This document shows positions 908 through 48,190 of a stretch of 64,000 nt of DNA, in pieces (within the stretch, counting starts at the first letter, position 1; each line of letters starts with the position of its first letter). The notes below the pieces were generated by a model, which had not been told where the DNA came from, made no database searches, and saw only the letters and a program-made list of their open reading frames with translations. The position numbers and the translations under genes were made by a program. Source of the stretch: a bacterium. GTDB lineage: Bacteria > Patescibacteriota > Patescibacteriia > Buchananbacterales > GWA2-38-13. The stretch lies in assembly GCA_030648715.1 (NCBI GenBank), contig JAUSGZ010000017.1, positions 5,108 through 69,107 on the forward strand. The letters are read 5' to 3'.

Positions 908-986
908 ACATGCCGAGCTCACCGAACGGTAGCGTGGTACCGAGCCATTTTTTTTAACATGATACAACGACCCACCGAGAAAAAAA

Positions 987-1940: not shown

Positions 1941-2077
1941 ACAAATAGTTACTCTTTTATACCACTTTAAACCACACAGTGCCAACAATGTTGTAGCAGT
2001 ATAGGCCCCACGAACAAACGGTAAAATATGGCCTAAACCAAAAAGAAAACTGGGCGGAGCGAAGGAGATAAATTCCA

Positions 2078-2105
2078 TTGACTTTGGATGAAAAAACGCT
2101 ATACT
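2078..2105 (+). promoter_or_regulatory. Putative sigma70-type promoter for the plus-strand glycosylation operon
   Basis: TTGACT (2078..2083), 16-nt spacer, TATACT (2100..2105), about 30 nt upstream of the flippase ATG. It lies in a divergent intergenic region. Confidence 0.35.
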
Positions 2106-2135
2106 ATCAACAGTTTTCACCTTTCCCATCCCCCG

Positions 2136-3515
2136 ATGTCGGAGGAAATTGGCATCGCAGCCACCCCGCCCCAAGGGCGCGCGCACCCTCATCAAGCCGG
2201 GCGGAGATCGTCACCGGTTTTTTTTCTGACCGCCGCGAACGTGCTTTCCGCCGTCATTGGGCTCGTCGCCAGCGTCATGACCGCCCGCTGGCTGGGCGAA
2301 GCATCGTACGGGGTCATGGGCGTCATCTGGGGGGTGAACGCCACCGTCCTCTCGTTCGTGGATCCGCGGCTGACCGACCTGATGGTCAAGCGCTACTACC
2401 AACCCCCTCCGCCGGGCGTCGAACTTCTGCGGCATCGGGCAAATGTCCTGCAGGTTACCTTCATCTCCTATTTCGGCCTGGCCGTTTGCGCGTTCCTGCT
2501 GGGGGCGATCGCCAACCTGGGGCTTATTGGCTTGTTCACGGCACAGCCGGTCAAGCTGAGCTGGATCGCGGCGGGCGCCTTCACCCTGTCCTCCAGCTAC
2601 CTACTCAACCCACTCACCCAGATGCACCGCCTGCAAGGCCGCTTCTATTTCCTCGGCCTGACGAATCTTGCGACCACGCTCGTGCTCTCGGGCACCGTGC
2701 TCGGGTGGTTGTATTTCAATCGCAGCCTCGATGGTTTCTACACCGGGTCGGCAGTCGGGGCTTTTACTACCACGGCGCTGTTCCTAACGGTGTCGGCCTA
2801 CCTTTGGACCGCCCGCGATCGCCTGCCGTTGTTCCAGAGATTGCACGGACCAACGCTCACCCAGTTCAAAAGGAATTATAAATTTTTATTCTGGAGCAAT
2901 ACGCTCGGCTACGTCAAAATGGGCCATCGCGCCGCCGATATTCTTTTCGTCGGTCTGCTGACCAACGACCAACTCACCGGCGTGTACAAGCTCGCGCGCT
3001 CGCTGACCGACAAGCTGTACTATCTGTTCGACGCCACCAACCAGGTCTACCAGCCGGACTTCATGCAATATCTCGCCGCCGGGCAACCGACAGAATACCG
3101 CCGCCTGGCTCGGCGGCTGCTCTCTTGGGCAGGGCTGGCGACGGGAGCGATCGTCGCCGTCGAACTCGCGGGCTACCCGCTATTCCAGCACTGGCTACTG
3201 GCGGGAAAATTCGCCGGTTCGCAAGCGGCCGTGGTCATCCTCACGCTGCCGCTGTTCCTGGTCCTGGGTGGGTATCTCTGGATTTGGCCCATCATTCTCC
3301 ACCACAACCTGCTCCGCTCCTTTACGGTGCTCGGATTGAGCGGTGTGGTGGCGCAGTACGCCGTGGGTTGGTTCCTGTTCACCGCCACCGGTCTGCCGGC
3401 CGCGTTCCCCATAGGCTACCTTACCTACTATCTGGTCCTCATCGGCGGAGCATTGCTTCAGATAAAAAAACTGCACCCGCGCTGGCTTCCCGGCACGTTC
3501 TATGCGCACCCCTAG
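2136..3515 (+). CDS. Polysaccharide/oligosaccharide flippase (Wzx-like, MOP superfamily), polytopic membrane protein
   Basis: About 12 predicted hydrophobic helices. It has the typical polysaccharide-biosynthesis-protein N-terminus (LTAANVLSAVIGLVASVMTARWLG) and heads the GT operon. The start was chosen at MSEEIGIA. Confidence 0.65.
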   Translation: MSEEIGIAATPPQGRAHPHQAGRRSSPVFFLTAANVLSAVIGLVASVMTARWLGEASYGVMGVIWGVNATVLSFVDPRLTDLMVKRYYQPPPPGVELLRHRANVLQVTFISYFGLAVCAFLLGAIANLGLIGLFTAQPVKLSWIAAGAFTLSSSYLLNPLTQMHRLQGRFYFLGLTNLATTLVLSGTVLGWLYFNRSLDGFYTGSAVGAFTTTALFLTVSAYLWTARDRLPLFQRLHGPTLTQFKRNYKFLFWSNTLGYVKMGHRAADILFVGLLTNDQLTGVYKLARSLTDKLYYLFDATNQVYQPDFMQYLAAGQPTEYRRLARRLLSWAGLATGAIVAVELAGYPLFQHWLLAGKFAGSQAAVVILTLPLFLVLGGYLWIWPIILHHNLLRSFTVLGLSGVVAQYAVGWFLFTATGLPAAFPIGYLTYYLVLIGGALLQIKKLHPRWLPGTFYAHP

Positions 3516-7308: not shown

Positions 7309-8432
7309 TGAAATCCCTGCTGCTCATCACCGATATTTTTCCACCGGAGATCGGCGGACCGGCAAGCTTTATGGTGCGGCTGGCCGCTACGCTGGCTGCC
7401 CGTGGTAGCAAAGTCACGGTGGTGTGTGCGACGCCTGCCGAGGGTCACGACGACCGGCAATTCCCGTTCAGAGTGTATCGCCACTCACGCCGACAGTTTG
7501 GTTTCCGCACCCGCACCGCTCTGCGAATCGCACGGGAGCTGCTCGCCCACGATGCATGCCTGGTGAACGGCCTGGAATACCTGACCGCCATTGCCGCGCG
7601 GATAGTTCGCCGCCCCTACACCATCAAGATCGTCGGTGATATCGTCTGGGAGATGGCGCGGCATTACGCTCTCACGGCGTCCGATATCGATGCCTTCCAA
7701 TCCCTGCTGCCTCCCTCGGAGAAATTGCGAACGCTGGCACGACGCCGGCGGTGGTACCTGAACGGTGCCGCAACCGTCATCGTCCCCAGCAACTACCTGC
7801 GCGGCCTGGTGCGCGGCTGGGGTATTCCCGCTGAGAAGATCCGAGTCATCCAAAACGGCATCCCCACCGAGGACTACCGTCAATGGCAGCCCCAACGAAG
7901 AGGGGCGTCCACACCGCTGCGCGTCGCATTCTGCGGACGCCTGACCAACTGGAAAGGGGTGGACACGCTCTTGGAAGCCGCCGCGGCGATAAAAAATATT
8001 AACATCGATATTATCGGCGACGGCCCCGAACGCGCAGCCCTGGAAAAAATCGTGACCGCGCGGGGGGTCAACGAACGGGTGACCTTTACCGGACGCCTTG
8101 ACGAAAAAGCCGCCAGGGACCGGCTCGCAAAATCCCACGTGCTGGTTCTTGACTCCGCCTACGAAGGGCACTCGCACGTACTGCTGGAAGCGGGAGCATT
8201 GGGCCTGGCGCCGATCGCCAGCCGCTGCGGCGGGAACCCCGAGATCGTCCGCGATGGCGAAAACGGCATCCTGGTCGCGCCCCATGACGTGCCCGCCTTG
8301 CGCGATGCGTTAGAACGACTGGAGGAAGATGAACCGCTCCGATTCCGACTCGCCTCGGCGGCAAAAAACGGAAGCCAGCGCTACTCGTTCAGCAACACTA
8401 TGACCGCCATTCTCGACCTGATCTCCGGCTGA
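7308..8432 (+). CDS. Glycosyltransferase family 4
   Basis: MKSLLLITDIFPPEIGGPASFMVRLA...FCGRLTNWKGVDTLLEA...YEGHSHVLLEAGALGLAPIASRCGGNPEIVRDGENGILV. ATGA overlap with the previous gene. Confidence 0.85.
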   Translation: MKSLLLITDIFPPEIGGPASFMVRLAATLAARGSKVTVVCATPAEGHDDRQFPFRVYRHSRRQFGFRTRTALRIARELLAHDACLVNGLEYLTAIAARIVRRPYTIKIVGDIVWEMARHYALTASDIDAFQSLLPPSEKLRTLARRRRWYLNGAATVIVPSNYLRGLVRGWGIPAEKIRVIQNGIPTEDYRQWQPQRRGASTPLRVAFCGRLTNWKGVDTLLEAAAAIKNINIDIIGDGPERAALEKIVTARGVNERVTFTGRLDEKAARDRLAKSHVLVLDSAYEGHSHVLLEAGALGLAPIASRCGGNPEIVRDGENGILVAPHDVPALRDALERLEEDEPLRFRLASAAKNGSQRYSFSNTMTAILDLISG

Positions 8433-8501: not shown

Positions 8502-9395
8502 ATGACCTACCAAATTCTCCTCAACAAAACCATGGACCGCGCCGACCTTCAAGGTCAGGAGGCGCAAACCGTGCTCCATGAGCTCAACGAGCTCATCCGA
8601 AAACTCCGCAAAAAAAATCTCAACATCAGTTCCTGGTACGGCTATTTCTCGCTGCCGCCGGTATGGCAGCACTATGAAACGGCCAACCGCGGATTCAACT
8701 ACCAGGCGTTGCCCGAAGCCATCGACGACCGCCATTTTCCCTGGTTTCTGTATTGGGAGATCGCCTGGGTGGTCATCAACAACCACTGGCAGCCGGGTAT
8801 GCGGGTGTTGGACCTGGGCGGAAGCTCGTCACTGTTCTCCTATTACCTTGCGTCCAAGGGACTCGAGGTGACCACGGTGGATCTCCAACCGGAGCTGGTC
8901 GACAACGCCAATCGCGTGGCCGCAGCCATGGGATGGCGCCTGAACAACCTGGTGATGGACATGCGCCACCTCACCGTGCCCGGGCCATTCGACCATATCA
9001 CGTCGATCTGCGTCTACGAGCATCTCCCCTGGCACGATCGGGTCGCGGTCAACCAAGAGGTGCGGCGGTTGTTGATGCCCAGGGGTAATTTCAGCATTAC
9101 CTTCGACTACCGCAACCCTTCGCAGCAGGCCCGCATTAGTTCGCCCGATGACGTCGCCGCGCAGTTCATCGCCCCCTCTGGCCTGGTGCCGCGCGGGAAC
9201 CTTCGGTTCCATGATTCCGGCTCCAGTCACCTCCTACACCCCTTCTTTTCCCCCAACGCAGACTGGCGGTGGAAGCTACAGTCCATCCGGCGCCGGGAAT
9301 TCCGCCTCACCGACTGGCCGAAAAAGAAGTTTGCTAATGACTATACGTTCGGAGCGCTGTTCTTGACGCAGCCGACTGCACCGCCGACGGCGTAA
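8502..9395 (+). CDS. Class I SAM-dependent methyltransferase
   Basis: MRVLDLGGSSSLFSYYLASKGLEVTTVDLQ...ITSICVYEHLPWHDRV...LLMPRGNFSITF. Confidence 0.75.
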   Translation: MTYQILLNKTMDRADLQGQEAQTVLHELNELIRKLRKKNLNISSWYGYFSLPPVWQHYETANRGFNYQALPEAIDDRHFPWFLYWEIAWVVINNHWQPGMRVLDLGGSSSLFSYYLASKGLEVTTVDLQPELVDNANRVAAAMGWRLNNLVMDMRHLTVPGPFDHITSICVYEHLPWHDRVAVNQEVRRLLMPRGNFSITFDYRNPSQQARISSPDDVAAQFIAPSGLVPRGNLRFHDSGSSHLLHPFFSPNADWRWKLQSIRRREFRLTDWPKKKFANDYTFGALFLTQPTAPPTA

Positions 9396-9425
9396 CAACG
9401 CCACCGCCAGGCTGCTGCTTCCTGC

Positions 9426-10571
9426 ATGCGGGTTACTCACGTCATCAACGTTGCTGAAATCCCTGGTCGCCCCCTGTTCTCCGGATCGGAACAGCACGTC
9501 TTCGTATTGATGGCCGAGCAGCAGTCGCGCGGCCTGCAGGTTGAATTTGCTCCCCAGGTTTTCCGTGACGGCCCCAACTTGCAAAAAAAATTCTCGGAAC
9601 TGCAGGCGGCGGGGATAACGGTGGCCCCGACGCTCGTCAATGGCCCGTACCACTGGCAGACGAATCTGCGACTGCTGCCGCGACTCCTACCTTTCTTTCG
9701 CACGCGCCGCCAACGATTGATCCACACCCACCTTGACGGCGTGGACTACGCCGCGCGTTTTGCCGCTGGGCTTGCCGGATGCCGCCGGGTGATCAGCACG
9801 GTGCATAATAATGAACCCCACTACGCCCGGCGGCGGGAGCGGCTGCAGCTGCAATTCCTGGACCGCTGGAATGCGCGGTACATCGCCATTTCAGAATGTG
9901 TGCACCGCTACCTGGTCGACCGACTCGGACTCCCCCCAAAAAAAATCGTAACCATTTACTACGGATTACCGGCGCCTGCCGCCATCCTCACGCGAACAGA
10001 GGCGCGTCGCCGCCTCGGACTGGACCCGGATGACCCGCGATTCACCGTGGGTTTTATCGGACGCTTTGAACCGCAAAAAGATCCACACAGCCTACTGCGC
10101 GCCGCCGCGGAAATTCCCGAACTTCAACTGGTCATGGTCGGCGCCGGCAGTCTCGCCGTCGACCTTCTCCGCGACGCGCAAAGACTCCCCGACGGTCAGG
10201 TGCATTTCATCCCGTACCGGCCGGATGCTGCCGACTTGATACCGGCATTCGACCTACTCTGTCTTCCCTCGCGCTGGGAAGGTTTTGGCCTGGTGCTGCT
10301 GGAGGCCATGGTACGCAATGTACCGATTGCCGGCAGCACCGCAGGCGCGATCCCGGAGATCCTTGACCACGGTCGGTGCGGTCTCCTATTCGACCCATCC
10401 CAACCTTCAGCGCTGACCACGTGCCTTCGGTACGCCATGGCGCAACGCCAAGAATTGTCGCTCCTCGCGCAGCGGGCTGCGGCATGGGCCGAATCGCGCT
10501 TCACCACTGCCGCGATGGTGGAGCAGACTCTTACCGTTTATCGTGAAGTATCGGGGAAACAAAAATCGTAG
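9426..10571 (+). CDS. Glycosyltransferase family 4
   Basis: FIGRFEPQKDPHSLLRAAAE...SRWEGFGLVLLEAMVRNVPIAGSTAGAIPEILDHGRCGLLFDP. Confidence 0.85.
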   Translation: MRVTHVINVAEIPGRPLFSGSEQHVFVLMAEQQSRGLQVEFAPQVFRDGPNLQKKFSELQAAGITVAPTLVNGPYHWQTNLRLLPRLLPFFRTRRQRLIHTHLDGVDYAARFAAGLAGCRRVISTVHNNEPHYARRRERLQLQFLDRWNARYIAISECVHRYLVDRLGLPPKKIVTIYYGLPAPAAILTRTEARRRLGLDPDDPRFTVGFIGRFEPQKDPHSLLRAAAEIPELQLVMVGAGSLAVDLLRDAQRLPDGQVHFIPYRPDAADLIPAFDLLCLPSRWEGFGLVLLEAMVRNVPIAGSTAGAIPEILDHGRCGLLFDPSQPSALTTCLRYAMAQRQELSLLAQRAAAWAESRFTTAAMVEQTLTVYREVSGKQKS

Positions 10572-10572
10572 T

Positions 10573-11415
10573 ATGGCAAATCCGCTCATTTCCATCATTA
10601 TCCCGACCTACAACCGGCCGCAACAGGCCGTTGCAGCAGTCCAAAGTTTTCTCCGTCAAACCTACCAGCGCTTCGAGGTGATCGTCGTGAATGATGGCGG
10701 CACCCAAGAGGTCGGGCCGGCGGTGAGCGCGCTGGACGATCCGCGTATCCGCTTCGTCTCAAAACTGAACGGCGGTTTAGCCTCGGCCCGCAACTACGGA
10801 TTGCGGCTCGCGCAAGGTGAATTCGTCACCTTCTGTGATGATGACGACGACGTGTACCCGCAGCGCCTCGAGTTGCATCTCGCGCACGTCGAGGCCGCCG
10901 GCGCGGCGATTTCCTTCTGCAACGCCCACATCGTGACCGGCCGCCGGACCCGGCTATTTTTCGGCCACGCGCCCCAACCCTCCTTCACCGGCCTCTTCTG
11001 CCGCCGCAATCCGCCCGTTCACGCCTTCCTGGTTGCGCGCGAGTGTATTGAACGTGCCGGCGGTTTTAACGAACGTTTGCGCGTCTGCGAAGACTATGAT
11101 CTGTGGCTGCGGCTGCTGCCGCGGTACCGTTTTGACTATTTCCACCTGCCGCTGGTCCGGTATGTACGGCATCCCGGCGCGATGAGCAACGACTTGCCGA
11201 CGATGTCGCGCGAGATTTGCCGCCTGGCGGAAAATTACGTCCGTGTCCATACGGCAGAACTGCCCCCGGAATTCCTACAAAAATTCCGACGCCTGATGCT
11301 CCTGCGCCAGGGCAAGCGGCAATTGCGGGAACACGATTTCCTCGGCAGCCTGATGACGGCGTATGAGTGGCTGACCGCCGCCTGGTCGCGTCCCCGTACG
11401 CCAAACGCATCCTGA
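10573..11415 (+). CDS. Glycosyltransferase family 2
   Basis: MANPLISIIIPTYNRPQQAVAAVQSFLRQTYQRFEVIVVNDGGT...DDDDVYPQRLE (DxD). The start was trimmed to MANPL. Confidence 0.85.
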   Translation: MANPLISIIIPTYNRPQQAVAAVQSFLRQTYQRFEVIVVNDGGTQEVGPAVSALDDPRIRFVSKLNGGLASARNYGLRLAQGEFVTFCDDDDDVYPQRLELHLAHVEAAGAAISFCNAHIVTGRRTRLFFGHAPQPSFTGLFCRRNPPVHAFLVARECIERAGGFNERLRVCEDYDLWLRLLPRYRFDYFHLPLVRYVRHPGAMSNDLPTMSREICRLAENYVRVHTAELPPEFLQKFRRLMLLRQGKRQLREHDFLGSLMTAYEWLTAAWSRPRTPNAS

Positions 11416-11417
11416 CC

Positions 11418-12587
11418 ATGCAACGAACCCCCCAACCGCTCCATGTCCTCCATATCGTCGAGGCAACACTGACGGGCACGCGACGGCACGTGACCGACCT
11501 GGTGTTGCAGGCAACCCCGGCCGTGCAGCCAACGCTGATATTTTCCAGAGTACGTGCCGACCGCGAATTTACAAACTCGCTGGCAGCAATCCAAGCGCGC
11601 GGGATTCCGCTGGTCGAGGTACCGATGTATCGGGTCTTCAAACCGTTCCAAAACTTCCGAGCTGGCCTGCAAATTTGCGCCCACATCGCCCGCACGCGTC
11701 CGCACATCGTCCACACCCACGGCGCGATCGCCGGCATTATCGGCCGCTGGGCGGCACACCGTGCGCGTGTTCCCGTTATCGTCCACACCCCGAATGCCTG
11801 GCCGTTCCTCGCGACCGGTGAGTGGCTGCTGCGGAGTCTGTACCGCGGGCTAGAGCGCTGGACGGCGCGCTGGTCGGACGCCATTATCTGCGTCTCCGAC
11901 CACGAACGACGGCTCGGCCTCACCTACCGCATCGCGCCGCCGGAAAGACTTATCCTCATTCCCAACGGCACGGATCTGACGGCAATCCACGGCGACCGAA
12001 CAGCGGCCCGCACGCTCCTGGGTCTGCCGTCCGATGCGCTGGTCTTTGGCAGCGTGACCCGTTTTGCCCCCCAGAAAGACCCCCTCGGCCTGATCTCCGC
12101 GCTGCAACCGCTCACCGCTCGCTTCCCGCGCTTCCACCTGGTGATGGTCGGCGAAGGACCGCTCCTTGCCGCCGCTACAAAATTCGTGACGCGCCACCAT
12201 GTAGAGCGGCAGATCCACCTCACCGGATTTAGAACTGATGCGACCGCGCTGCTCTTTGGTTTCGACGCGTTCCTCCTCTCCTCGCGCTATGAGGGGCTTG
12301 CGTACGGCGTGCTGGAGGCGATGGCCGCCGGACTCCCCATCATCACCACCGCCGGCGGCAATGAGCAGGCCGTACGCCACGGAGTGAACGGCCTGGTGGT
12401 ACCCGTGGACGACCAGGTGGCGTTGCAAACAGCGGTCACGACCCTGCTGCAGGACCACCACCTGCGCCAGTCCTTCGGACAACAGAGCCGAGTTCGGGTA
12501 CAGCAGTTCACCGTTGATGGCATGGTCGGAAAGACGGAAGCGCTCTATCGGCGATTAGTGGAAGAGAAAGGACTTCTGCTAGAGTAA
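11418..12587 (+). CDS. Glycosyltransferase family 4
   Basis: HVLHIVEATLTGTRRHV...GSVTRFAPQKDPLGLISA...SSRYEGLAYGVLEAMAAGLPIITTAGGNEQAVRHGVNGLVV. The start was trimmed to the ATG at 11418. Confidence 0.85.
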   Translation: MQRTPQPLHVLHIVEATLTGTRRHVTDLVLQATPAVQPTLIFSRVRADREFTNSLAAIQARGIPLVEVPMYRVFKPFQNFRAGLQICAHIARTRPHIVHTHGAIAGIIGRWAAHRARVPVIVHTPNAWPFLATGEWLLRSLYRGLERWTARWSDAIICVSDHERRLGLTYRIAPPERLILIPNGTDLTAIHGDRTAARTLLGLPSDALVFGSVTRFAPQKDPLGLISALQPLTARFPRFHLVMVGEGPLLAAATKFVTRHHVERQIHLTGFRTDATALLFGFDAFLLSSRYEGLAYGVLEAMAAGLPIITTAGGNEQAVRHGVNGLVVPVDDQVALQTAVTTLLQDHHLRQSFGQQSRVRVQQFTVDGMVGKTEALYRRLVEEKGLLLE

Positions 12588-12593: not shown

Positions 12594-13937
12594 ATGATGT
12601 GGCTTTTGATCGCGAGCGACATCCTCATGCTTCAGGCGAGTTTTTGGCTGGCCTATGCGGCGCGCACCGGCACGTTCTTCGCTACTACGCTGGAAGTACT
12701 GCCGCCCATGGCGGTATATCTGGCTGCCTTGCCCTGGTCGGCCGCGCTCCTCGTGGCGATCTTTTACGTCCGCGGGCTCTACTGGCCGGCCCGCCGGCTC
12801 ACACCCGCGGTCGAGGCCTACGAAGTGGTCAAGGGAGTGACCGCGTGGGCGCTGCTGGTGATGTCGGGTTCCTATCTGGTGAAATTCGATTACTCGCGCA
12901 TCGTCGTCCTTGCGACCTGGCTGCTGGCCGTGGTCCTGGTGACCGGAGGACGCTGGATCTCCAGCCGCATCATCAGCGTACTTGCCCGCCGCGGCGTGGG
13001 TGCGCTCAACGTCCTGATCATCGGTTCGGGGAAACCGGCCCGCATCATTGCCCAACAGCTTCAGCCGTACGCTCGTCTCGGCTATCGCCTCGTGGGCTGT
13101 GTCGGGGACGGTGGAATCAACGGATTGCCATGCCTCGGTACCGCCGACGACGTACCGCGCCTGATCAACGCTCATAGTATCCGACAAGTCTACGTGGCGG
13201 AACCCGCGCTCTCGTACGACGCCATCCTGACCATGGTCTACACCTGTCCGTCCAAGAACGTCCAATTCCGCATCGCCGCAAATATCTTCCCCCGCTTCCA
13301 CGCTCCCCGCTCGCTGACCGAACTCGAGGGCTTCCCGTCACTGGATGTGCGGCGCGCGGAACCCGCGCTCTGGTACCGGGCCGCCAAGCGCCTCCTGGAT
13401 ATCCTTTTGAGCGGTTTCCTGCTGATGTTCAGCCTGCCGCTCTGGGGACTGATCGTGCTTTTTATCCGCCGCGATTCCTCAGGCCCCGCGCTCCTCACGC
13501 AGCCGCGCGTCGGCTACCGCGGACGGCGTTTCATCCTCTATAAATTCCGCTCCATGGTTGCCGCTACCGAACGCGACGCGACGCCACCCTCCAGCTTGCA
13601 GGATTCCCGCATCACCAATGTGGGCCGATTTCTGCGGCGCACCAGCCTGGACGAGCTGCCGCAATTGCTCAACATTCTCCGCGGCGACATGAGCCTGGTC
13701 GGCCCGCGTCCGGAACTGGAATCGCTCGCCGCGCGCTACCAGGGATGGCAGCTGCGCCGATTCGACGCCAAGCCGGGGCTGACCGGGCTGTGGCAGATCC
13801 TGGGACGCAAAGATCTCAGCCTGGAACAAAAACTGGAATACGATTTCTATTACGTCAACAATCAATCTCTGCTCCTCGATCTGATGATCATGGTCCGGAC
13901 CATCCCCCAGATCATTTTCGGCAAGGGTGCGTATTAA
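12594..13937 (+). CDS. Undecaprenyl-phosphate sugar phosphotransferase (WbaP/exopolysaccharide priming glycosyltransferase family)
   Basis: N-terminal TM helices, then the bacterial sugar transferase domain [57 protein letters not shown]...[22 protein letters not shown]. Confidence 0.9.
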
Positions 13938-13938: not shown

Positions 13939-15816
13939 ATGACCCTGCTGCGCACGGACAAAGTGGTTGCCGCCGGCACGCTGGCCGCGGTGCTGCTGGC
14001 GGCAGGCTTGGGCTGGAACAGCCGCGAACCGTGGGGAATGCTTCTGATCTCCGGCACGGTCCTCACGCTGGTGCTTTCCAGCCTGGCCGCCAAAAAACGG
14101 TCGGCGGCACAGCCATTCCCTGCCCCCCTGCTGCTGTTTGCCCTGGCGACCGCCATTGCCACGGCGACCTCAAGCTACGTGTATGGCTCGCTACTGGCCG
14201 CCCTGCCCATCCTCACCGGTATCGCGGCATTTTACCTTGGCCAGCAACATTTCCATTCGGTGCGGCGCCAACAGTGGCTGGCCGCAACGGTGGTTATCAC
14301 CGGGGTGGTCCTTGCGGTGGATGGGTTGCGCCGCGTCCCCGGCCTTGACAACCCCGAGCTTGGCATCGCGTCGGTGTTCCTGTGGAAAAACGCCTACGCC
14401 GGATGGCTGGCGATGACCTTGCCCATCGCCGTAGGGCTGGTTGCTGCCAGCCGCCGCCCGCTCCTTTTTTGGCTGAACATTGGCGGCTTGAGCACCATTG
14501 CCGCGGCGCTGTTCTTCACTTCGTCACAAGCGGGATGGCTGGCCGCAGGCGCGGGTATTGGTCTGGTGATCGCGGCATCGGCATGGCAACACCGGAGCGT
14601 TCCCAGGCGAGCGCTGCTGAGCCTCCTGATCGCCGGACTGGGAAGTGCCGCCATCATCGGCGTGCTGTGGCGGCTGCAAACGGACGGCATTGGGCCGCAG
14701 GGCAGCCCGGCAGCGCTCTCCCGCGTGGCCGGGTTCATCCCCGAGTCCACCAGCACCCGCCAGAACTACTGGAAAACAACGCTTGAGATGATCGCCGACT
14801 ACCCCTGGTACGGCGTTGGTCCGGGCAACTTCACCGCCTGGTACCCCCACTACTTCAAACAACCATGGCTGTACACTATCAGCCCGCATAATGTCGCCTT
14901 GCTTTATGCGGCGACGCTGGGCGTGCCCGCCACGATCTTCCTGCTCATGTTCTTAGGCCAACTTTTTTGGCGTACGCTCCGAGGCTGGCAACAGCAGTGC
15001 CGCGTCAACCAGGAAAAAGATTCTTGTGCGTGGACAGTGGTTTGGACCGGGAGCGCGCTGACCGGCATCGCGCATGCACTGCTGGACTTGACCTTTGAAG
15101 TGCCGGCAATCCTCCTGCTGTGGTGGCTGTTGCTCGGCCTGCTACACGGCAGCCAGGCACCGGAGGGAGCAGCAGTGCGTACCTCCAAGGTTGTTCGCGC
15201 AAGTCTGGCCAGTGTTGCCACCGCAACGCTGGTCCTGGTTTTTGTGCTGCTGATCGCCGACAACGCCTACCGCCAGGCGGTGGTGCTGACCGGCGCGAAC
15301 GCGGCACAACGCCTCTCCTTGCTGCAACGTTCCCTGTCTCTAATGCCGCTAGCAGCACCGGCGCACGAGGCCATCGCCCAACACTACTGGGAAATGGTGA
15401 CCGCCCACAACGGCGACCGCGGCGCCAACTTACGGGCCATGGTTGCCGCTGCGCGACGAGCGGCGGAACTTGAACCCGCCTCTGCACACCGACAGTGGTT
15501 CCTCGGCTACGCGTACTACCTGGGACAGACACCCGAACATGCCTACTGGCCGTTCATTATTGACCATCTCACCCGTGCTATCGCCTACGATTTTCACGAC
15601 CCGACGTACTATCGGACGCTGGCGGAAGTCTACCTGCGTCTTGGGTGGCCACAGCAGGCACGCGCGACGATCACCACGGTACTGGATCTGTACTCCGAAC
15701 AAGAGCTTTCCCGCATCACCTTCGGCGGGGTCATCTACGAGCAACTCGGCCTCCGGGAACGGCTGGAAGCACTGCGCGGGTTGCTGCGCTACACCGAACT
15801 TCCCGCGCGGAAGTGA
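13939..15816 (+). CDS. O-antigen ligase (Wzy_C/WaaL) family polytopic membrane protein with C-terminal TPR-like repeats; candidate O-oligosaccharyltransferase or polymerase
   Basis: Multiple TM helices and a large loop with the ligase-like YPWYGVGPGNFTAWYPHYF. The C-terminal ~200 aa are helical repeats (TPR-like). The start was set to MTLLRT at 13939. Confidence 0.75.
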   Translation: MTLLRTDKVVAAGTLAAVLLAAGLGWNSREPWGMLLISGTVLTLVLSSLAAKKRSAAQPFPAPLLLFALATAIATATSSYVYGSLLAALPILTGIAAFYLGQQHFHSVRRQQWLAATVVITGVVLAVDGLRRVPGLDNPELGIASVFLWKNAYAGWLAMTLPIAVGLVAASRRPLLFWLNIGGLSTIAAALFFTSSQAGWLAAGAGIGLVIAASAWQHRSVPRRALLSLLIAGLGSAAIIGVLWRLQTDGIGPQGSPAALSRVAGFIPESTSTRQNYWKTTLEMIADYPWYGVGPGNFTAWYPHYFKQPWLYTISPHNVALLYAATLGVPATIFLLMFLGQLFWRTLRGWQQQCRVNQEKDSCAWTVVWTGSALTGIAHALLDLTFEVPAILLLWWLLLGLLHGSQAPEGAAVRTSKVVRASLASVATATLVLVFVLLIADNAYRQAVVLTGANAAQRLSLLQRSLSLMPLAAPAHEAIAQHYWEMVTAHNGDRGANLRAMVAAARRAAELEPASAHRQWFLGYAYYLGQTPEHAYWPFIIDHLTRAIAYDFHDPTYYRTLAEVYLRLGWPQQARATITTVLDLYSEQELSRITFGGVIYEQLGLRERLEALRGLLRYTELPARK

Positions 15817-15850
15817 CGCAACATTCGCGTACGATCAGACGAACAAAAGA

Positions 15851-15872
15851 ACGGCATATGCCGTTCTTTGCC
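15851..15872. terminator. Hairpin (agaacggcatatgccgttct) between the convergent O-antigen-ligase-like gene and pilin gene; likely bidirectional terminator
   Basis: Perfect 9-bp stem around a 4-nt loop, flanked by aaaag on the plus side (T-run for the minus-strand pilin). Confidence 0.4.
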
Positions 15873-15888: not shown

Positions 15889-16398
15889 TTAGTGTGCGCA
15901 GCTTGGGCCAACTCCGGCTTCGGTACCGCACAGCAATCCGACACCCAGCTGGCCGGCGCCGACTTCCAGTCGGAAATGGATCTCGTAACGTTCGCCGCTC
16001 AAACGCGCGTACGAATAATTGCACGGGGTGCCAAAGGTCGCGCACGGCCGGTTGTGGTTGGGCACATCCGACGTGCTGGCGGGATCGCGGGGAGCCAACC
16101 CCATGTAGACCGGATTGGCGCAGGTGGTGTCCACTTCCCAGCCAAGGGCGCCGAGGCATCCGATGCCGTTCGTTGGGTTGCCGATCTCGCCGTCGGCCAG
16201 CGTCGGAGGGAAATCAACACTCGTGTTGAAGTACACTTCCAGCGCCTTGCGCAGCTGGGCGACATCACCGGAACGAATGGCATCGCGGGCTTTGGAACGG
16301 GCATTCCCGTACGCGATGAGCACCAGGGTCGACAGCAACCCGATGATGGCAATAACCACCAGCATCTCGATCAGCGTAAATCCGGTCCGTCGAATCAT
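15889..16398 (-). CDS. pilA: Type IV pilin (prepilin-type N-terminal cleavage/methylation domain)
   Basis: MIRRTGFTLIEMLVVIAIIGLLSTLVLIA carries the G|FTLIE class III signal. The C-terminal globular domain has several Cys. Trimmed to the ATG at 16396..16398. Confidence 0.85.
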   Translation of the reverse strand: MIRRTGFTLIEMLVVIAIIGLLSTLVLIAYGNARSKARDAIRSGDVAQLRKALEVYFNTSVDFPPTLADGEIGNPTNGIGCLGALGWEVDTTCANPVYMGLAPRDPASTSDVPNHNRPCATFGTPCNYSYARLSGERYEIHFRLEVGAGQLGVGLLCGTEAGVGPSCAH

Positions 16399-16526: not shown

Positions 16527-17054
16527 TTAGTGGGAGCAGCTCCCGCCAGTGCCGGCTTCGGTCGCGCAGTTCAACCCGCTGTTCAGGCCACCGGTATTCG
16601 CCTCAAGGCGGAAGTGGATCTCATACCCGTTGGCGGTCCCGGTGCCGACGTTGATCTGGTCGTAGGAGTAGTTGCACGGCAACGCCCCTTCCGTTTCGCA
16701 GGGGTTATCGCTCCCCGGGTTGGAGGCGGTGTTGCTCGGATCGCGCGGCGTCAACCCCATGTAGATCGGAGCGGCGCAGGACGTATCCAGCTCCCAGCCG
16801 AGGTCGCCCAGACAACCTTGCCCGTTGGTGGGGTTGCCAATCTCGCCGTCGCCGGATTCCGGCGCGTAGGCGCCCTTGTCGTTGAAGTAGATCTCGAGTG
16901 CCGTTTGCAGCTGCTTCATGTCGGACACGCGCTTGGAGTCCCGAGCCTTCTGCCGGGCGGAGTTAAGGGCCACCACGGCGAGGGTTGACAGCAGACCAAT
17001 GATCGCGATCACGACCAACAGCTCAATTAACGTAAAACCTTTTCTGGTCTTCAT
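16527..17054 (-). CDS. pilA: Type IV pilin paralog
   Basis: MKTRKGFTLIELLVVIAIIGLLSTLAVVAL. It shares the internal GEIGNPTNGxGCLGxLGWExDTxCAxPxYMGLxPRDP block and the C-terminal YEIHFRLE...TEAG.G.SC.H block with the adjacent pilin. Confidence 0.85.
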   Translation of the reverse strand: MKTRKGFTLIELLVVIAIIGLLSTLAVVALNSARQKARDSKRVSDMKQLQTALEIYFNDKGAYAPESGDGEIGNPTNGQGCLGDLGWELDTSCAAPIYMGLTPRDPSNTASNPGSDNPCETEGALPCNYSYDQINVGTGTANGYEIHFRLEANTGGLNSGLNCATEAGTGGSCSH

Positions 17055-17258: not shown

Positions 17259-18464
17259 TCAAATATTTTCGGACAGCTGATACAAGGGCAGGATGACGGC
17301 GGCGACCATCAGCCCGACCGCAATACCCATCATGCCGATCACCAACGGTTCAATGAGAGAAACGAGGTTCCGCACCACATTATCGATCTCGCGGGTATAA
17401 AAATTGGTCATTTTCTCCAACACGTGGTCCAGGCGTCCGGTCTTCTCGCCAACGTTCAGCATCTGCGCCACCATGAACGGCACGACCGAGGAGTGCAAAA
17501 ACACCGACGCGATGGGGTTGCCATCCTCCACCTCGCGGATGGTATCGGTAATGACCTTGCGGTAGACCTCGTTGCCGACCACATCCGCGGTAATGGCCAG
17601 CGCCTGGGGCAGGTTCACGCCGCCGACGATCAGCGTGTGCAGGCTGCGGGAAAACCGCACCAGCGCGATCTTCTGGAACAGCTTGCCGAATATCGGGACG
17701 TGCAATTTCACGGTATCCCACGTGCGGCGCCCTTCCTTGGTCCGGATGAGAAAAAAAAGTCCGATCCCTCCTGCGATGCCGCCGAGGAGCAAGAGCAGCC
17801 AGTAGTTGGAAAGAAAATCGCTGACCCAGATCAGCAAGCGCGTGGAAATGGGCAGCTCGGCTCCGCTCTCTTGCAGGATGGTGGTGATCTTCGGCACCAC
17901 GAACGTCATCATCATGAACCCGACAATGACCAGGCCGCTCAAAATGAACACGGGATAGATCATCGCGCCCCGGATACGGCTGGTCAGGTCGTAATCTTTC
18001 TCCAATTGGTTGGCCAGATACTCGAGTACTTCATCGAGTTTGCCCGACGTTTCGCCTGAACGGATGATGTTGACGTAGAACGCGTCGAACACCCGCTTGT
18101 GTTTCGCGAGGGCCACGGAAAACTTCGTGCCCGCCTCCACATCGTCGGCAACCTCGGAGACGATGACCTTGAGGTGCCGGTTCGGGGTTTGCGTGATAAG
18201 AATACGCAAACTCTGCACCAAGGGAACGTTCGCCGACACCAACACCGCCAACTGCCGCGAGAATACCACGACGTCGCGGATGGACACGCGCTTGAGCACG
18301 TCCAACGACTTCCCCAGGATGGAGGAAGATACCTCGTGCAGGTACACGATGGTCAACCCCCGCTCCCGCAGACTGTCGGCGGCCAGATCCTCCGTGGCCG
18401 CCTGTACCAGGCCGCTGACAGTCACATTCTCGGCAGTCTTGGCTTTGTAGGCGTATTCAGGCAC
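17259..18464 (-). CDS. pilC: Type IV pilus inner-membrane platform protein PilC (GspF family)
   Basis: 401 aa with two T2SSF repeats and 3 TM segments (MIYPVFILSGLVIVGFMMM...; IEPLVIGMMGIAVGLMVAAVILPLYQL). GTG start. Confidence 0.9.
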   Translation of the reverse strand: MPEYAYKAKTAENVTVSGLVQAATEDLAADSLRERGLTIVYLHEVSSSILGKSLDVLKRVSIRDVVVFSRQLAVLVSANVPLVQSLRILITQTPNRHLKVIVSEVADDVEAGTKFSVALAKHKRVFDAFYVNIIRSGETSGKLDEVLEYLANQLEKDYDLTSRIRGAMIYPVFILSGLVIVGFMMMTFVVPKITTILQESGAELPISTRLLIWVSDFLSNYWLLLLLGGIAGGIGLFFLIRTKEGRRTWDTVKLHVPIFGKLFQKIALVRFSRSLHTLIVGGVNLPQALAITADVVGNEVYRKVITDTIREVEDGNPIASVFLHSSVVPFMVAQMLNVGEKTGRLDHVLEKMTNFYTREIDNVVRNLVSLIEPLVIGMMGIAVGLMVAAVILPLYQLSENI

Positions 18465-18577: not shown

Positions 18578-19657
18578 CTATCCGTACCCGCGCGTCATCA
18601 TTTTCAGGTGTTCGGGGTCAACCGCCTCCGCCAATGCCTGCGGCTGCGCCACGATCCCGGCCTTGACCAGCGCCGCCAGCGACTGGTCCAGGCTCACCAT
18701 CCCCTCCTGTTGCGACGTCTGCAGCACCGATTGCAGCTGCGGGAACCGACCCTCGCGCAACAACGAATGGGTGGCTGATGTCAGGGTCAGGATCTCCATC
18801 GCCGCGACCCGGCCGCCGTCCATGCGCGGCAACAAACGCTGGCAGATGACCGCACCCAGGCTTTCCGCGAGTTGCTCTTGTGCCTGCCCGCGGACGTCCT
18901 GGGGGAACGTGGAAACGAGCCGTTCAATGGCCTGCACGGCGGTCACCGCGTTCATCGTCACATACACCAGCCGGCCGAACGCCGCCAGCTCCACGGCCGC
19001 CCGCAGCACGCCCGGCTCATCCGTTTCCCCCACCAACACCACGGTTACGTCCTCCTGCCCGCATTCCTCGAGCGCCTGACGGAACGTCGGCACGTCGCGC
19101 CCGACCTCGCGCTGGACCACGATGCTCTTGGCGTTCGTGATCAGGTACTCGATCGGCTGTTCGACGGTGAGGATGTTCTCGGACCTCCGCTGGTTGATCT
19201 GCTCCACCATCGCCGCCGCAGTCGTCGAGCGACCGGAATTGTACGGCCCGCAGGCCACGATCAGCCCGCGCTTGCGGTCCACTAGCTGCCCGATGAATGC
19301 CGGCAACCCCAGCTGATCAAGGTTGGGCACGGTCGTGGAGATCAGACGCCAGGTGAACGCCAGCCCACCCTTCTGATAGAACGCGGTTATCCGCACCCGC
19401 AGCTTCCCCTCATAGAGATAGATGAACCGGACGGAACGGTGCTGCTCCAGCGTTTCCCGCTGCATGGGATCAAGCAGTTCGTCGCGGAGCGCCTCCAAAA
19501 AATCCTTGGTCAGCACCGACGCATCGGTCACTTCGATCAACCCCGTATCCAGCCGCAGCACCGGCAGACTGCCGGCCAGCAGGTGGATATCGGAAGCCTG
19601 GCGCTTGGCGGCGGTAGCCAGGATCTTCCCGACCTCAAGATGGACTGCGGTATTCAT
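18578..19657 (-). CDS. pilT: PilT-family twitching-motility ATPase homolog with degenerate catalytic motifs
   Basis: PilT-like length and N-terminus (DIHLLAGSLPVLRLDTGLI), but Walker A reads GPYNSGRSTT (canonical GPTGSGKSTT) and the His box reads TMNAVTA (canonical TLHTNSA). The Walker B/Asp-box region VVLVGETDE is retained. Confidence 0.8.
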   Translation of the reverse strand: MNTAVHLEVGKILATAAKRQASDIHLLAGSLPVLRLDTGLIEVTDASVLTKDFLEALRDELLDPMQRETLEQHRSVRFIYLYEGKLRVRITAFYQKGGLAFTWRLISTTVPNLDQLGLPAFIGQLVDRKRGLIVACGPYNSGRSTTAAAMVEQINQRRSENILTVEQPIEYLITNAKSIVVQREVGRDVPTFRQALEECGQEDVTVVLVGETDEPGVLRAAVELAAFGRLVYVTMNAVTAVQAIERLVSTFPQDVRGQAQEQLAESLGAVICQRLLPRMDGGRVAAMEILTLTSATHSLLREGRFPQLQSVLQTSQQEGMVSLDQSLAALVKAGIVAQPQALAEAVDPEHLKMMTRGYG

Positions 19658-20054: not shown

Positions 20055-21785
20055 TTAGAGTTTGGTCACGCGGTACACCTCTTCGAGCGTGGTTTTCCCG
20101 GACAGCACCTTCAGCAAGCCGTCCAGACGCAAGGTGATGTACTTTTGCTTCGCCAGGGCGATAGTAACCTCGCGCGGATGAAACCCCGAGGTAATGAGCT
20201 CTTGGAGTTCGGGGGTGAATTCGATGGCTTCAACGACCGCCACTCGGCCTTGATACCCGGAATTCGCGCACCGCGTGCAACCCTTTCCCTTCGTGAATGA
20301 CAGCTTCTCATGCGACACTCCCTTGGGCCAGTATTCGTCGGGAATCGCCACAATTTCCGCTTTGATCGCCGCCACCGTTGCCGCGGGCACCTCAACCGGC
20401 TTGGCACAGTACCCGCAGATACGTCGCGCCAAACGCTGCGCCATTACGACGTTCACCGTCGAGGCGAGCAGGAACGGCTCAACCCCCATATCCATCAGGC
20501 GCGGAACCGCACCGACAGCGTCGTTCGTGTGCAGGGTCGAAAGCACCAGGTGGCCGGTGAGGCTGGCGTGAATCACGAGCTCGGCCGATTCCTGGTCGCG
20601 GATCTCGCCGAGCATGATGATATTCGGGTCCTGGCGCAAAATGCTGCGCAATCCCGACGCGAACGTGTAGCCCACCTCCGGATTGATCTGCGACTGGTTC
20701 ACTCCCTCCACGTAGTACTCCACGGGGTCTTCCAGGGTAATAATATTCACGCCCTCCTTATTCAGCATGGTCAGGATAGTGTAGAGCGTGGTTGTTTTCC
20801 CTGAACCGGTCGGGCCGGTCATCAGCAGCAACCCGTTGGGCTTGGCAATACCGCGGGAAATGATCGCAATATGCGGCGCGGAAAACCCCAGGTCCTCCAG
20901 CGTCGGAACCTTCAGCGAGACATCCAGCACGCGCATCACTACCTTTTCCCCCTCGAACAGCGGCAAGGTGGAGACGCGGAAGTCGATCTCGCGCCCTTCA
21001 ATGGTCAGGCGGATGCGGCCGTCCTGGGGTTTGCGGGTCTCATCGAGCTTGAGGTTCGCCAACACCTTGATGCGGGCGACGATCGCCGAATGAATGTAGC
21101 GCGGGAGCCGCAGGCTGGTGCGCAGAATGCCGTCAATGCGGTAACGGACGCGCGTTTCATGCGGCTCGGGCTCGATATGGATGTCGGAAGCGCGGCCGTC
21201 GATAGCGTGCCGGATGATGACGAGCACCATCTTGGACACCGGCGCCGATTTCACGACCTCCTGCAGATCTTTTTCCGTCACGCGCGTATCCAGCTCCGTC
21301 ACCTGTTCGTTGACGCCCGCCAGCGCCTCCTCGGCCTCCTTGCTGAGTTCGCCGTACTGCCGGGAGGTTTGACGCCAGCCCGTTCCCGAGATCATGAAGT
21401 AGCGCGCCGTAAACCCGCTCTCCTGGGCAAGGAAATCAACGGCCTCGATCGCTTTAAAATTCTGCGGATCGACCATCGCGACCTTGACTTCGTTGCCCTC
21501 GCGGTCAAAGGCGATCATCTGGTAGTTCTCGGCCGCGGACGCGGGGATCGTATTGAGCACGTTGGGGGCAATGACCTTGCCGGTCAGGTCAATATAGGGC
21601 ACACCCAGCATCGCCGCCTTCACCTGGGTCAGCGTTTCCTCATCCATCAACCCCTCCTTCACGATCTGCCGCTCAAGCGCGACGGGGTCGGCGCCGGCCT
21701 GCTGCAATAAGGCGTCCGCCTGCTGGGCGGAGATGGTATTGCGTTCCTGGAGCGCGGTGATCAGCAGTTTTACATCGATCGGCAT
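20055..21785 (-). CDS. pilB: Type IV pilus assembly ATPase PilB (GspE family)
   Basis: Walker A LMTGPTGSGKTTTLYTIL, Asp box, His box LSTLHTNDAVGAVPRL, and a C-terminal CxxC...CxxC Zn motif (CGYCAK...CTRCANSGY). Trimmed to MPIDVKLL (ATG at 21783..21785). Confidence 0.9.
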   Translation of the reverse strand: MPIDVKLLITALQERNTISAQQADALLQQAGADPVALERQIVKEGLMDEETLTQVKAAMLGVPYIDLTGKVIAPNVLNTIPASAAENYQMIAFDREGNEVKVAMVDPQNFKAIEAVDFLAQESGFTARYFMISGTGWRQTSRQYGELSKEAEEALAGVNEQVTELDTRVTEKDLQEVVKSAPVSKMVLVIIRHAIDGRASDIHIEPEPHETRVRYRIDGILRTSLRLPRYIHSAIVARIKVLANLKLDETRKPQDGRIRLTIEGREIDFRVSTLPLFEGEKVVMRVLDVSLKVPTLEDLGFSAPHIAIISRGIAKPNGLLLMTGPTGSGKTTTLYTILTMLNKEGVNIITLEDPVEYYVEGVNQSQINPEVGYTFASGLRSILRQDPNIIMLGEIRDQESAELVIHASLTGHLVLSTLHTNDAVGAVPRLMDMGVEPFLLASTVNVVMAQRLARRICGYCAKPVEVPAATVAAIKAEIVAIPDEYWPKGVSHEKLSFTKGKGCTRCANSGYQGRVAVVEAIEFTPELQELITSGFHPREVTIALAKQKYITLRLDGLLKVLSGKTTLEEVYRVTKL

Positions 21786-21801
21786 ACGCGAGCAAAAAAC
21801 T

Positions 21802-22140
21802 TCATTGCGTCGTGGGGGTCGTGGTCCCAATGTAGGGCAGCGGTTCGAACGGATTGGTACGGCCGGTCGGCCCGGCCTCGACGGGCAACGGCACCACCTG
21901 TCGCAACTCGGTGAACTGCCGGCTGGTAAAGACCGGCGGTTCCGCATTGAATGCCGGCGGCGGCGGGTACTGCACTTGGGCGCTATCGGCAAACTCTTGC
22001 TGCCATTGGGTCGGGACCACGGCGGTATCGGTGTTCACCACGTTGGTATACAACAGCCAGCCGATCGTCACGATCGTCACTACCAGCACAAGGGTAAGGC
22101 TGATGAGTTTCCCGGGGCTTGTTCGGCGGGGGGCGAGCAT
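21802..22140 (-). CDS. Small single-pass membrane protein of the pilus operon (unknown function, Pro-rich periplasmic tail)
   Basis: MLAPRRTSPGKLISLTLVLVVTIVTIGWLLY, then a Pro-rich segment. It is tightly packed between pilO and pilB and has no prepilin motif. Confidence 0.4.
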   Translation of the reverse strand: MLAPRRTSPGKLISLTLVLVVTIVTIGWLLYTNVVNTDTAVVPTQWQQEFADSAQVQYPPPPAFNAEPPVFTSRQFTELRQVVPLPVEAGPTGRTNPFEPLPYIGTTTPTTQ

Positions 22141-22148: not shown

Positions 22149-22766
22149 CTAACGCGGCCAATAGTACGCCTGCATCGAAATGGAGAATACCGTATCGTCG
22201 CTGGCGGTAAAATTGATACTGATCACGTCGATCAGCCGGAGGTTGGATTCAAGGTTCGTCAGCAGCTGCTTGATCCTGCCGTAGTTGCCGCGGGAAACGC
22301 TCAAATCGATACGTACGGACCGCAGATCGGACAATGGCCGCGCTTCCGGCGGCACAGCTGCCTCGCCCGCGCCGCCACTGCTCGCAGCGTACTCGGTGAA
22401 TTGGACGCCATTCACCAGCAACCCGCTCTGCCGCGCGATCTCGGCGACCTGCACCAGCAGTCCGGGCAGGTCCGGCTCGGCGGGCAGCAACGACTTGAAT
22501 CGCTCGATCTGCGACAAATTGAAACGGCTTTTCCGCTCCTGCAGGGTGTGCAAGGCTTTCAGATGACCGTCCAAATAATCGGCCTGCGTCCTGGTCTGGA
22601 GCAGATTATAACGACGATGCGTGCGAATTTCCTCCCACCCTCCTTTGATGAACCACAGATACCCGCACACCAAGACGATCACCACGCTCAAAATAATGAG
22701 CTCAAGGTAAAAGCGGGAAAATACCTTGAACAGCTGGACGCGGATTTTCGGCCACGAAATGCTCAT
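22149..22766 (-). CDS. pilO: Type IV pilus assembly protein PilO
   Basis: N-terminal TM (LELIILSVVIVLVCGYLWFI), a coiled-coil segment and a C-terminal PilO-like domain (LPGLLVQVAEIARQSGLLV...ISMQAYYW). ATGA coupling with pilN. Confidence 0.7.
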   Translation of the reverse strand: MSISWPKIRVQLFKVFSRFYLELIILSVVIVLVCGYLWFIKGGWEEIRTHRRYNLLQTRTQADYLDGHLKALHTLQERKSRFNLSQIERFKSLLPAEPDLPGLLVQVAEIARQSGLLVNGVQFTEYAASSGGAGEAAVPPEARPLSDLRSVRIDLSVSRGNYGRIKQLLTNLESNLRLIDVISINFTASDDTVFSISMQAYYWPR

Positions 22767-48175: not shown

Positions 48176-48190
48176 GTTCTAAAATCCTTA

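Follow-up and report, generated by a model that had tools for sequence, protein, structure and literature searches.

The 64-kb window analysed here (64,000 nucleotides of contig JAUSGZ010000017.1, positions 5,108 to 69,107 of the forward strand, from the Patescibacteriota assembly GCA_030648715.1) contains a cluster of glycan-assembly genes that closes with the gene of a 625-amino-acid (aa) Wzy_C protein, and this gene converges on an operon for type IV pili (Table 1). We call this protein and its close relatives family A. The explanation that we favour, judging the case to be evenly balanced, is that family A would be a protein O-oligosaccharyltransferase (O-OTase) that transfers a glycan en bloc.

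The locus

The open reading frame (ORF) spans 13927/13939..15816 on the plus strand; read from the ATG at 13939, it gives a 625-aa protein with a 100% match to a database entry (P0001) that bears the sole label 'O-antigen ligase family protein [bacterium]'. The stop codon (TAA) of the preceding gene, for a priming polyprenyl-phosphate glycosyl-phosphotransferase (PGT), sits 1 nt ahead of this ATG. Besides the PGT, the glycan cluster holds in total six glycosyltransferase (GT) proteins (five GT4 and one GT2), four methyltransferase domains, one of them fused to a GT4, and one epimerase/dehydratase. A first description of the locus, made by a model from the DNA letters (hereafter the sequence-only reading), had listed seven GTs where Pfam finds six proteins, and was right about the PGT, the methyltransferase domains and the epimerase. 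It had also listed a flippase: the 475-aa protein concerned is indeed polytopic, but no Pfam or NCBIfam model matches it. Its N-terminus is weakly similar (E 0.007) to a genuine Polysacc_synt flippase encoded at the same position in a related locus (L008); BLASTP against the genuine flippase of another (L009) gave no match, and a single-sequence AlphaFold2 (AF2) model (pLDDT 44) was unusable.

On the other side, 72 nt separate the family-A stop (15816) from the end of the convergent pilin ORF (15889), as had been stated, and both ORFs beyond family A are prepilins by their N_methyl motif and G/FTLIE cleavage site (the slash marks the cut). Within this gap lies a perfect inverted repeat, missed by a simple terminator scan, which from its sequence is probably a bidirectional terminator between the convergent operons. 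In agreement with the sequence-only reading, the ORFs that were scanned in the 64-kb window, the genome beyond it not being covered, included neither secretin nor lipopolysaccharide (LPS) genes; an S-layer gene was likewise not recognised in the window.

Domains, fold and predicted topology

The Pfam model Wzy_C (PF04932) matches residues 185-336 (60.5 bits against a cutoff of 31.7, E 2e-16), as it matches all 19 family members, and the peptide first quoted for this polytopic protein, YPWYGVGPGNFTAWYPHYF, is present in it. The AF2 model (pLDDT 80.9, pTM 0.82) has a single significant Foldseek match apart from TPR (tetratricopeptide repeat) proteins, the WaaL structure 7tpg (E 1.2e-5). The predicted topology consists of nine helices, a large loop with R274 and H317, three helices and, in the AF2 model, a thirteenth. 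The density of Lys and Arg is 0.11-0.37 in the predicted inside loops and 0-0.05 in the short predicted outside loops, loop 24-31 (0.12) excepted. Because this density is high inside and low outside, the outer face is predicted to carry all the conserved residues, with the TPR domain extracytoplasmic and beside the active site. The outward-facing conserved residues of the core comprise W149-K150-N151, S196-Q197, R274, P289, G292, G294, H317-N318, H379, D383, E387 and P389.

The C-terminal TPR domain is real. On the single sequence the TPR models stay below threshold (TPR_11, E 0.002; TPR_2, E 0.012), whereas the 19-member family profile matches consensus TPR structures with a per-repeat E of ~1e-8, and TPR_2 is matched by 16 of the 19 members. 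AF2 places a helical-repeat domain at residues 452-620, behind a long extra helix (417-449); the domain measures ~175 aa, somewhat less than the ~200 aa of the sequence-only reading, whose call of TPR-like helices was correct. The similarity of this part to PilW/PilF/Tgl models, considered as evidence of a role in the pilus, was set aside as generic TPR similarity.

A small family whose named members are from the candidate phyla radiation

Family A is small, with ~19 clusters. An exhaustive HMMER search returned 3600 matches at E <= 1e-3, of which only 16 cluster representatives lie at E < 1e-30. The 17 best matches (P0040-P0056, P0002 excepted) share 21-43% identity, and 16 of them, ~590-650 aa long, span both the core and the C-terminal domain, while P0043 (518 aa) is without the N-terminal part. 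Members from loci whose GT sets are unrelated still align from end to end (21-46% identity), with 14 invariant residues (W149, N151, W200, R274, Y277, W278, G292, G294, N297, P316, H317, G328, D383 and P470). The nearest homolog, 78% identical and in a fully syntenic locus, comes from Parcubacteria group bacterium Gr01-1014_31, where the gene is annotated 'O-antigen polymerase'; public annotations switch between 'ligase' and 'polymerase'. Three members have an organism name (Patescibacteria, Parcubacteria and Candidatus Uhrbacteria), and all three belong to the candidate phyla radiation (CPR). Weak NCBIfam matches among the 19 members favour models of the ligase type, namely IctB (19), PEP_O_lig_1 (5) and RfaL (3), over a repeat-unit polymerase model (1, E 0.034).

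Word-indexed homolog searches yielded only distant Wzy_C(-TPR) proteins, and the true family was reached only by exhaustive HMMER. Similarly, the single 625-aa protein compared with PDB sequences by phmmer gave nothing useful, and family profiles were needed. The search for related loci with an 8-sequence alignment gave two genome loci and no metagenome loci; a metagenome scan with the P0046 clade gave eight.

Active-site residues

The family profiles of the membrane core match only two solved proteins, WaaL of Cupriavidus metallidurans (CmWaaL, 7tpg; E 1e-11 to 3e-12) and 9rmk, labelled 'Oligosaccharyltransferase' (E 3e-9). The numbering of 9rmk reproduces the residues described by Schulz et al. 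for PglL of Neisseria meningitidis (NmPglL): Q178, N180, R224, R298, P313, G316, G318, H349, H400, E404 and P406. In the profile alignments, R274 and H317, both invariant in the family, correspond to R265 and H313 of CmWaaL and to R298 and H349 of NmPglL; family A thus retains, facing outward, the catalytic Arg and His known as R288 and H338 in Escherichia coli WaaL. The homologous His is needed in WaaL, PglL and TfpM (PMC3643930, PMC9829042). Further correspondences with NmPglL are N151 with N180, P289, G292 and G294 with P313, G316 and G318, and H379, D383 and P389 with H400, E404 and P406, the last three being S, Q and Q in CmWaaL. Of the seven PglL-specific residues of Schulz et al., six (N151, G292, G294, H379, D383 and P389 in family A) are matched or conservatively replaced, and Q178 has become Trp; most of the six are also common in other uncharacterised Wzy_C homologs.

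Gene neighbourhood in relatives

Of 17 informative loci, 16 have family A facing a pilin operon, at identities as low as ~25% (about 8-9 independent lineages rather than 16, many of the syntenic loci being close relatives). Two loci too short to judge (L012 and L022) are outside this count, and the one exception is L013, where the PGT and family A occur but a pilin does not. Direct facing of a prepilin gene is seen in the window, in L001/L007 (78% identity), in a Patescibacteria metagenome-assembled genome (L008, 42%; its cluster contains a Polysacc_synt flippase, a GT11, three GT2, a GT4, two methyltransferases and a 447-aa PGT), in L010 (~31%), in L011 (~26%) and in the Uhrbacteria locus L014 (~26%). 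In L009/L017, L015, L016, L018-L021 and L023, a second Wzy_C paralog, which we call family B, stands between family A and the pilin. Family B proteins (661-672 aa, ~22% identical to family A) retain the canonical Arg and His and carry a helical extension at the C-terminus; tblastn found no family-B or other second Wzy_C gene in the window.

The genes around family A differ much in their conservation. An ortholog of the 447-aa PGT adjoins family A in L001, L008, L011 and L014, and across lineages tblastn gave identities of 47-51% for the PGT in L008, L011 and L014 (lower in L009 and L013), ~25-46% for family A, 37-74% over the aligned part for the pilins and 45-79% for PilC; the GT and methyltransferase genes are not conserved beyond the sister genome. 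That family A and the PGT are kept while the GTs between them are exchanged suggests the behaviour of a glycan-tolerant ligase or O-OTase and not that of a Wzy polymerase, since Wzy polymerases normally co-vary with the repeat unit. A gene for a Wzz-type polysaccharide co-polymerase (PCP) was found neither in the window cluster nor in L001, L008, L009, L011 and L014, and might be encoded elsewhere.

In L009 a PMT_2 gene (8506-9897, +; GT-C, ArnT/protein-mannosyltransferase-like) lies directly upstream of family A, replacing the large PGT in the P0046 clade; in this clade a small 224-aa Bac_transf protein is encoded at the opposite end of the cluster, beside the prepilin peptidase gene, which in L009 is on the far side of the glycan cluster.

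The pilins as candidate acceptors

The sequence-only reading had pointed to the pilin C-termini as places to look for acceptor sites. The two pilins of the window terminate in ...SCAH and ...SCSH, and related pilins in H, Q, F, P, E, D, L or I; a C-terminal Ser or Thr was found in none of the pilins adjoining family A (window, L001, L008-L011 and L014-L023). Modification of the C-terminus in the manner of TfpO or TfpM is thus excluded, as the pilins beside family A end in neither residue. Most of them do have an internal variable loop, made of DP, 2-17 residues rich in Ser, Thr, Ala, Gly and Pro, and a Cys (for example RDPSNTASNPGSDNPC). One might speculate, by analogy with PglL or PglS, that this DP...Cys loop is an internal acceptor site.

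Proposed mechanism

The analysis establishes the fold and domain assignments, the residue conservation, the predicted topology and the conserved neighbourhood; the nature of the donor, transfer en bloc and the choice of acceptor are inferred. By their domain content, the 447-aa PGT would prime polyprenyl phosphate, the six GTs and four methyltransferase domains would assemble a methylated oligosaccharide at the cytoplasmic face, and the Wzx-like protein would flip it outward. As the final step of the upstream operon, family A, a GT-C-like membrane transferase of the WaaL/PglL type, would then move the whole glycan from polyprenyl diphosphate to an acceptor at the outer face of the membrane, with an active site formed by the outward-facing R274, H317, N151, K150 and D383/E387/P389. 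The acceptor would most likely be a protein held by the extracytoplasmic TPR domain. Proteins are the usual ligands of such domains, and one facing outward fits the binding of a protein acceptor. The best candidates would be the adjacent major type IV pilins, modified in the internal Ser/Thr-rich loop and not at the C-terminus, and possibly other surface proteins; that the pilin itself is the acceptor we propose tentatively, and hold to be somewhat doubtful. A role as WaaL is unlikely because CPR bacteria have, to our knowledge, no LPS and no outer membrane, which removes the acceptor of WaaL.

Points against protein glycosylation, and alternatives

Several observations weigh against the glycosylation of proteins, and of pilins in particular, by family A. 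Being convergent, with a terminator between them, family A and the pilin are not co-transcribed. The syntenic loci are not independent observations, because many are closely related, and distant Wzy_C-TPR homologs lack linkage to pilins (their contexts are uninformative, being unrelated to pili). None of the 19 members matches the Pfam models PglL_A (PF15864), O-antigen_lig or Wzy_C_2 at E <= 1. Family A also departs from the pilin-linked TfpO/TfpM in its 625 aa, its TPR domain, its orientation, convergent with the pilin across a terminator, and in pilins that end in neither Ser nor Thr. In at least eight loci it is family B that lies directly downstream of the pilin gene or genes, co-oriented with them, in a tfpO-like position, so that, where both families occur, it may in truth be B that modifies the pilin, with A acting as a polymerase or a general ligase. 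Acinetobacter has two such enzymes, TfpO plus PglL, and by analogy the genomes with both families could alternatively be read as a two-OTase arrangement of the same kind. Finally, an Arg that is essential in E. coli WaaL (R215; R191 in CmWaaL and R224 in PglL) is Gln in 18 and Lys in one of the 19 family-A members, against Arg in 116 of 132 other homologs. With this Arg lost, the chemistry of family A may differ from that of the proven ligases. At position 150, where other homologs mostly have Pro or His, every family-A member has Lys or Arg (a W-[KR]-N motif), and the two changes together could represent a relocated positive charge.

The operon content, too, weighs on this side, as it is exactly that of a Wzx/Wzy polymer locus, in the classic style: a PGT, six GTs, a putative flippase and a single Wzy_C protein. 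Family A might then polymerise, as a Wzy-type enzyme, the repeat units of a Wzx/Wzy-dependent surface heteropolysaccharide (capsule- or exopolysaccharide-like), the pilus adjacency being inherited synteny and protein glycosylation falling to another enzyme such as family B. Consistent with such a role, which we think rather unlikely, Pfam Wzy_C includes polymerases, the sister gene is annotated as one, an active site that has lost the R215-equivalent Arg is unlike that of the proven ligases, and the second Wzy_C protein in the pilin operon (L009, L015, L016, L018-L021 and L023), having the canonical Arg and His, is a possible ligase or OTase. A polymerase would not be expected to align over its full length, with 14 invariant residues, despite unrelated GT sets; the loci examined contain no gene for a Wzz/PCP co-polymerase or a tyrosine kinase; the NCBIfam repeat-unit polymerase model is matched by one of 19 members (E 0.034); and the solved structures matched are WaaL and PglL and no solved Wzy. 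We know of no role for an outward TPR domain in Wzy. Moreover, the six locus types that have family A only would possess a polymerase with no visible ligase nearby.

The same altered active site (Gln197 and Lys/Arg150) could instead reflect a different acceptor or donor. Family A would in that case be a ligase whose acceptor in the CPR envelope is not a protein (but a membrane glycolipid, peptidoglycan or a lipoteichoic-acid-like anchor), that is, an analogue of WaaL with another lipid acceptor. This we consider improbable. WaaL is the top sequence and structure match among solved proteins, and the best NCBIfam model, IctB, describes a Wzy_C protein whose substrate is unknown; yet the usual ligands of TPR domains are proteins, CmWaaL is without the PglL-type H/D/P residues, no candidate genes for acceptor synthesis were seen in the window, and the conserved pilin neighbourhood would be left unexplained.

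The sequence-only reading had preferred glycosylation of pilins or surface proteins to O-antigen building. The CPR affiliation of the named relatives, the pilin synteny in 16 of 17 loci, the catalytic and PglL-type residues, the variable GTs and the outward TPR domain speak for it; the unmatched PglL models, the misfit with TfpO, family B in the tfpO-like slot, the lost Arg and a possible Wzy role speak against it. That reading is supported in part, on much firmer ground than the DNA letters by themselves could give, and we retain protein glycosylation as the favoured explanation. Its fullest form, which we regard as doubtful, would make family A an O-OTase class, possibly specific to CPR, with a rewired active site (Arg to Gln, and the gain of W-[KR]-N) that glycosylates the major type IV pilin at the internal DP-Ser/Thr-rich loop with methylated oligosaccharides varying between lineages.

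Coordinates and other features of the window

Table 1. Features of the glycan and pilus locus, parts of the family-A gene and two family-B genes (window positions unless a related locus is named; slash, prepilin cleavage site)
Feature	Position	Strand	Basis
Methyltransferase, divergent	158-1066	-	Pfam
NAD-dependent sugar epimerase/dehydratase, divergent	987-2195	-	Pfam
Polytopic 475-aa protein, putative Wzx-type flippase	2088..3515	+	weak similarity to L008 Polysacc_synt protein
GT4-methyltransferase fusion	3502-5382	+	Pfam
FkbM methyltransferase	5396-6211	+	Pfam
GT4	6208-7308	+	Pfam
GT4	7308-8432	+	Pfam
Methyltransferase	8502-9395	+	Pfam
GT4	9426-10571	+	Pfam
GT2	10543-11415	+	Pfam
GT4	11367-12587	+	Pfam
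Priming PGT, 447 aa, Bac_transf + CoA_binding_3	12594..13937	+	Pfam, NCBIfam TIGR03025 above cutoff
Family-A Wzy_C/TPR protein, 625 aa, candidate en-bloc glycan ligase / O-OTase	13939..15816	+	ORF, Pfam Wzy_C, AF2, Foldseek
WaaL-like 12-helix membrane core, aa 1-404	13939..15150	+	profile alignments to CmWaaL and NmPglL, conservation table, positive-inside analysis
Extra 13th transmembrane helix, aa 417-449, bringing the C-terminal domain outside	15187..15285	+	AF2 helix; K/R-rich loop 405-422 precedes
Extracytoplasmic TPR domain, aa 452-620	15292..15798	+	family profile, Pfam TPR_2, Foldseek
Perfect 11-bp inverted repeat AAAGAACGGCA-TA-TGCCGTTCTTT, A-tract and T-tract flanks, between convergent family-A and pilin genes	15843..15871	.	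read from sequence
Type IV prepilin 1 (MIRRTG/FTLIEM...), proposed acceptor, S/T/A/P-rich loop PRDPASTSDVPNHNRPC	15889..16398	-	N_methyl, pilin alignment
Type IV prepilin 2 (MKTRKG/FTLIEL...), proposed acceptor, loop PRDPSNTASNPGSDNPC	16527..17054	-	N_methyl, pilin alignment
PilC	17259-18464	-	Pfam
PilT-like ATPase	18578-19657	-	Pfam
PilB	20055-21992	-	Pfam
Two proteins without assigned identity, within pilus operon	22149-24556	-	Pfam scan
PilM	24562-25704	-	Pfam
Family B, locus L009	11885-13870	-	Wzy_C
Family B, locus L015	5012-7030	-	Wzy_C

Two giant ORFs lie on the minus strand beyond the pilus operon, one of 2862 aa with Beta_helix/NosD repeats (27839-36427) and one of at least 2663 aa that runs past the end of the window (56007-63998), where the AT skew is strongly negative. 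Both probably encode surface proteins, which could be other targets of glycosylation. Between them, also on the minus strand, a TraG/VirB4-like P-loop ATPase (50201-52168) is followed by three ORFs without Pfam matches; together they (50201-56001) may form a module resembling type IV secretion or conjugation. A low-GC islet (46076-48176, GC 0.47 against ~0.61), edged by tRNA-Arg(gcg) (46076-46151) and tRNA-Ser(tga) (48088-48176), holds a 349-aa ORF without a Pfam match (46974-48023, -) and may have been acquired horizontally. The overall GC content of the window, ~61%, is unusually high for a Parcubacteria-type CPR genome.

Significance

Few surface machines are conserved in CPR/Patescibacteria; type IV pili belong to these few and drive episymbiosis, host recognition and motility. 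Judged by its own active-site signature and its conserved pilus-linked context, family A is a distinct clade of a known superfamily. Full-text literature searches brought up no account of an O-OTase from CPR/Patescibacteria, and a study of the Saccharibacteria pilus predicted pilin glycosylation in silico only and named no enzyme (PMC11623550). The known classes are PglL, PglS, TfpO and TfpM, together with the S-layer enzymes WsaB/WsfB. If family A does glycosylate proteins, it would form a fifth class beside PglL, PglS, TfpO and TfpM, enzymes of bioconjugate vaccine production, and its Arg-to-Gln change would be informative on the mechanism of the WaaL/PglL superfamily. The conserved arrangement of PGT, variable GTs, ligase and pilin would then be a testable genetic basis of surface glycan variation, which could bear on host specificity and on phage and immune evasion, and, if the pilin is the acceptor, its glycosylation would be a conserved part of the pilus machinery by which CPR bacteria contact hosts and take up DNA. 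Were family A a polymerase instead, this would be an ordinary polysaccharide locus with an unusual conserved synteny.

Comparison with known systems

The best structural match, and with E 1e-11 to 9e-26 the best profile match, is WaaL of C. metallidurans, which shares with family A the 12-helix core and the equivalents of R265 and H313. It is without the thirteenth helix, the TPR domain and the PglL-type H/D/P motif, and its R191 (E. coli R215) is Gln in family A. As to context, the family-A locus is a PGT/GT operon beside pili, without LPS genes in the window ORFs scanned, and the named relatives are CPR. WaaL proper was accordingly rejected on the lack of LPS context, the CPR host, the extra helix and the TPR domain. 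The cyanobacterial IctB (TIGR00947) is the best NCBIfam match of all 19 members, nearly full-length over the membrane core, at 74 bits against a cutoff of 366; it is a protein of unknown biochemical function that lacks a TPR domain.

TfpO (PilO) and TfpM of Pseudomonas, Acinetobacter and Moraxella are, like family A, Wzy_C proteins with an essential His and linkage to the major pilin. These proteins have 420-470 aa and no TPR, their genes directly follow pilA in the same orientation, and they target a C-terminal Ser/Thr (PMC9829042). Membership in this group was rejected on orientation, size and pilin C-terminus, and it is family B that better fits the TfpO position.

PglL (PglO) of Neisseria (9rmk) is like family A in the Wzy_C core, the Arg (R298, our R274) and the His (H349, our H317), and its N180, G316, G318, H400, E404 and P406 are matched by N151, G292, G294, H379, D383 and P389. 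The two are of similar length (550-600 aa, against ~620 aa in family A), both have a C-terminal extension containing TPR, and PglL modifies an internal site of its acceptor and not the C-terminus, as we propose for family A. Homologs of PglL adjoin pilin genes in 21 of 31 cases (PMC3643930). Family A differs in having Trp for Q178 and Gln for R224, in a profile match of only E 3e-9, in its monoderm-like host, and in closing a glycan operon convergent with the pilin; membership in the PglL family was rejected, the PglL-specific models being unmatched.

The predicted S-layer O-OTases WsfB of Paenibacillus alvei and WsaB of Geobacillus stearothermophilus, likened to family A by description only, are Wzy_C proteins of monoderm bacteria; their genes lie in or near a glycan (slg) locus that has a WbaP-type PGT and methyltransferase activity. 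A C-terminal TPR motif has been reported for both PglL and WsfB, the latter a candidate S-layer O-OTase from a monoderm (PMC2943079). Family A has a type IV pilin as its neighbour, with no S-layer gene seen adjoining it, and shares with WsfB the architecture of Wzy_C plus TPR.

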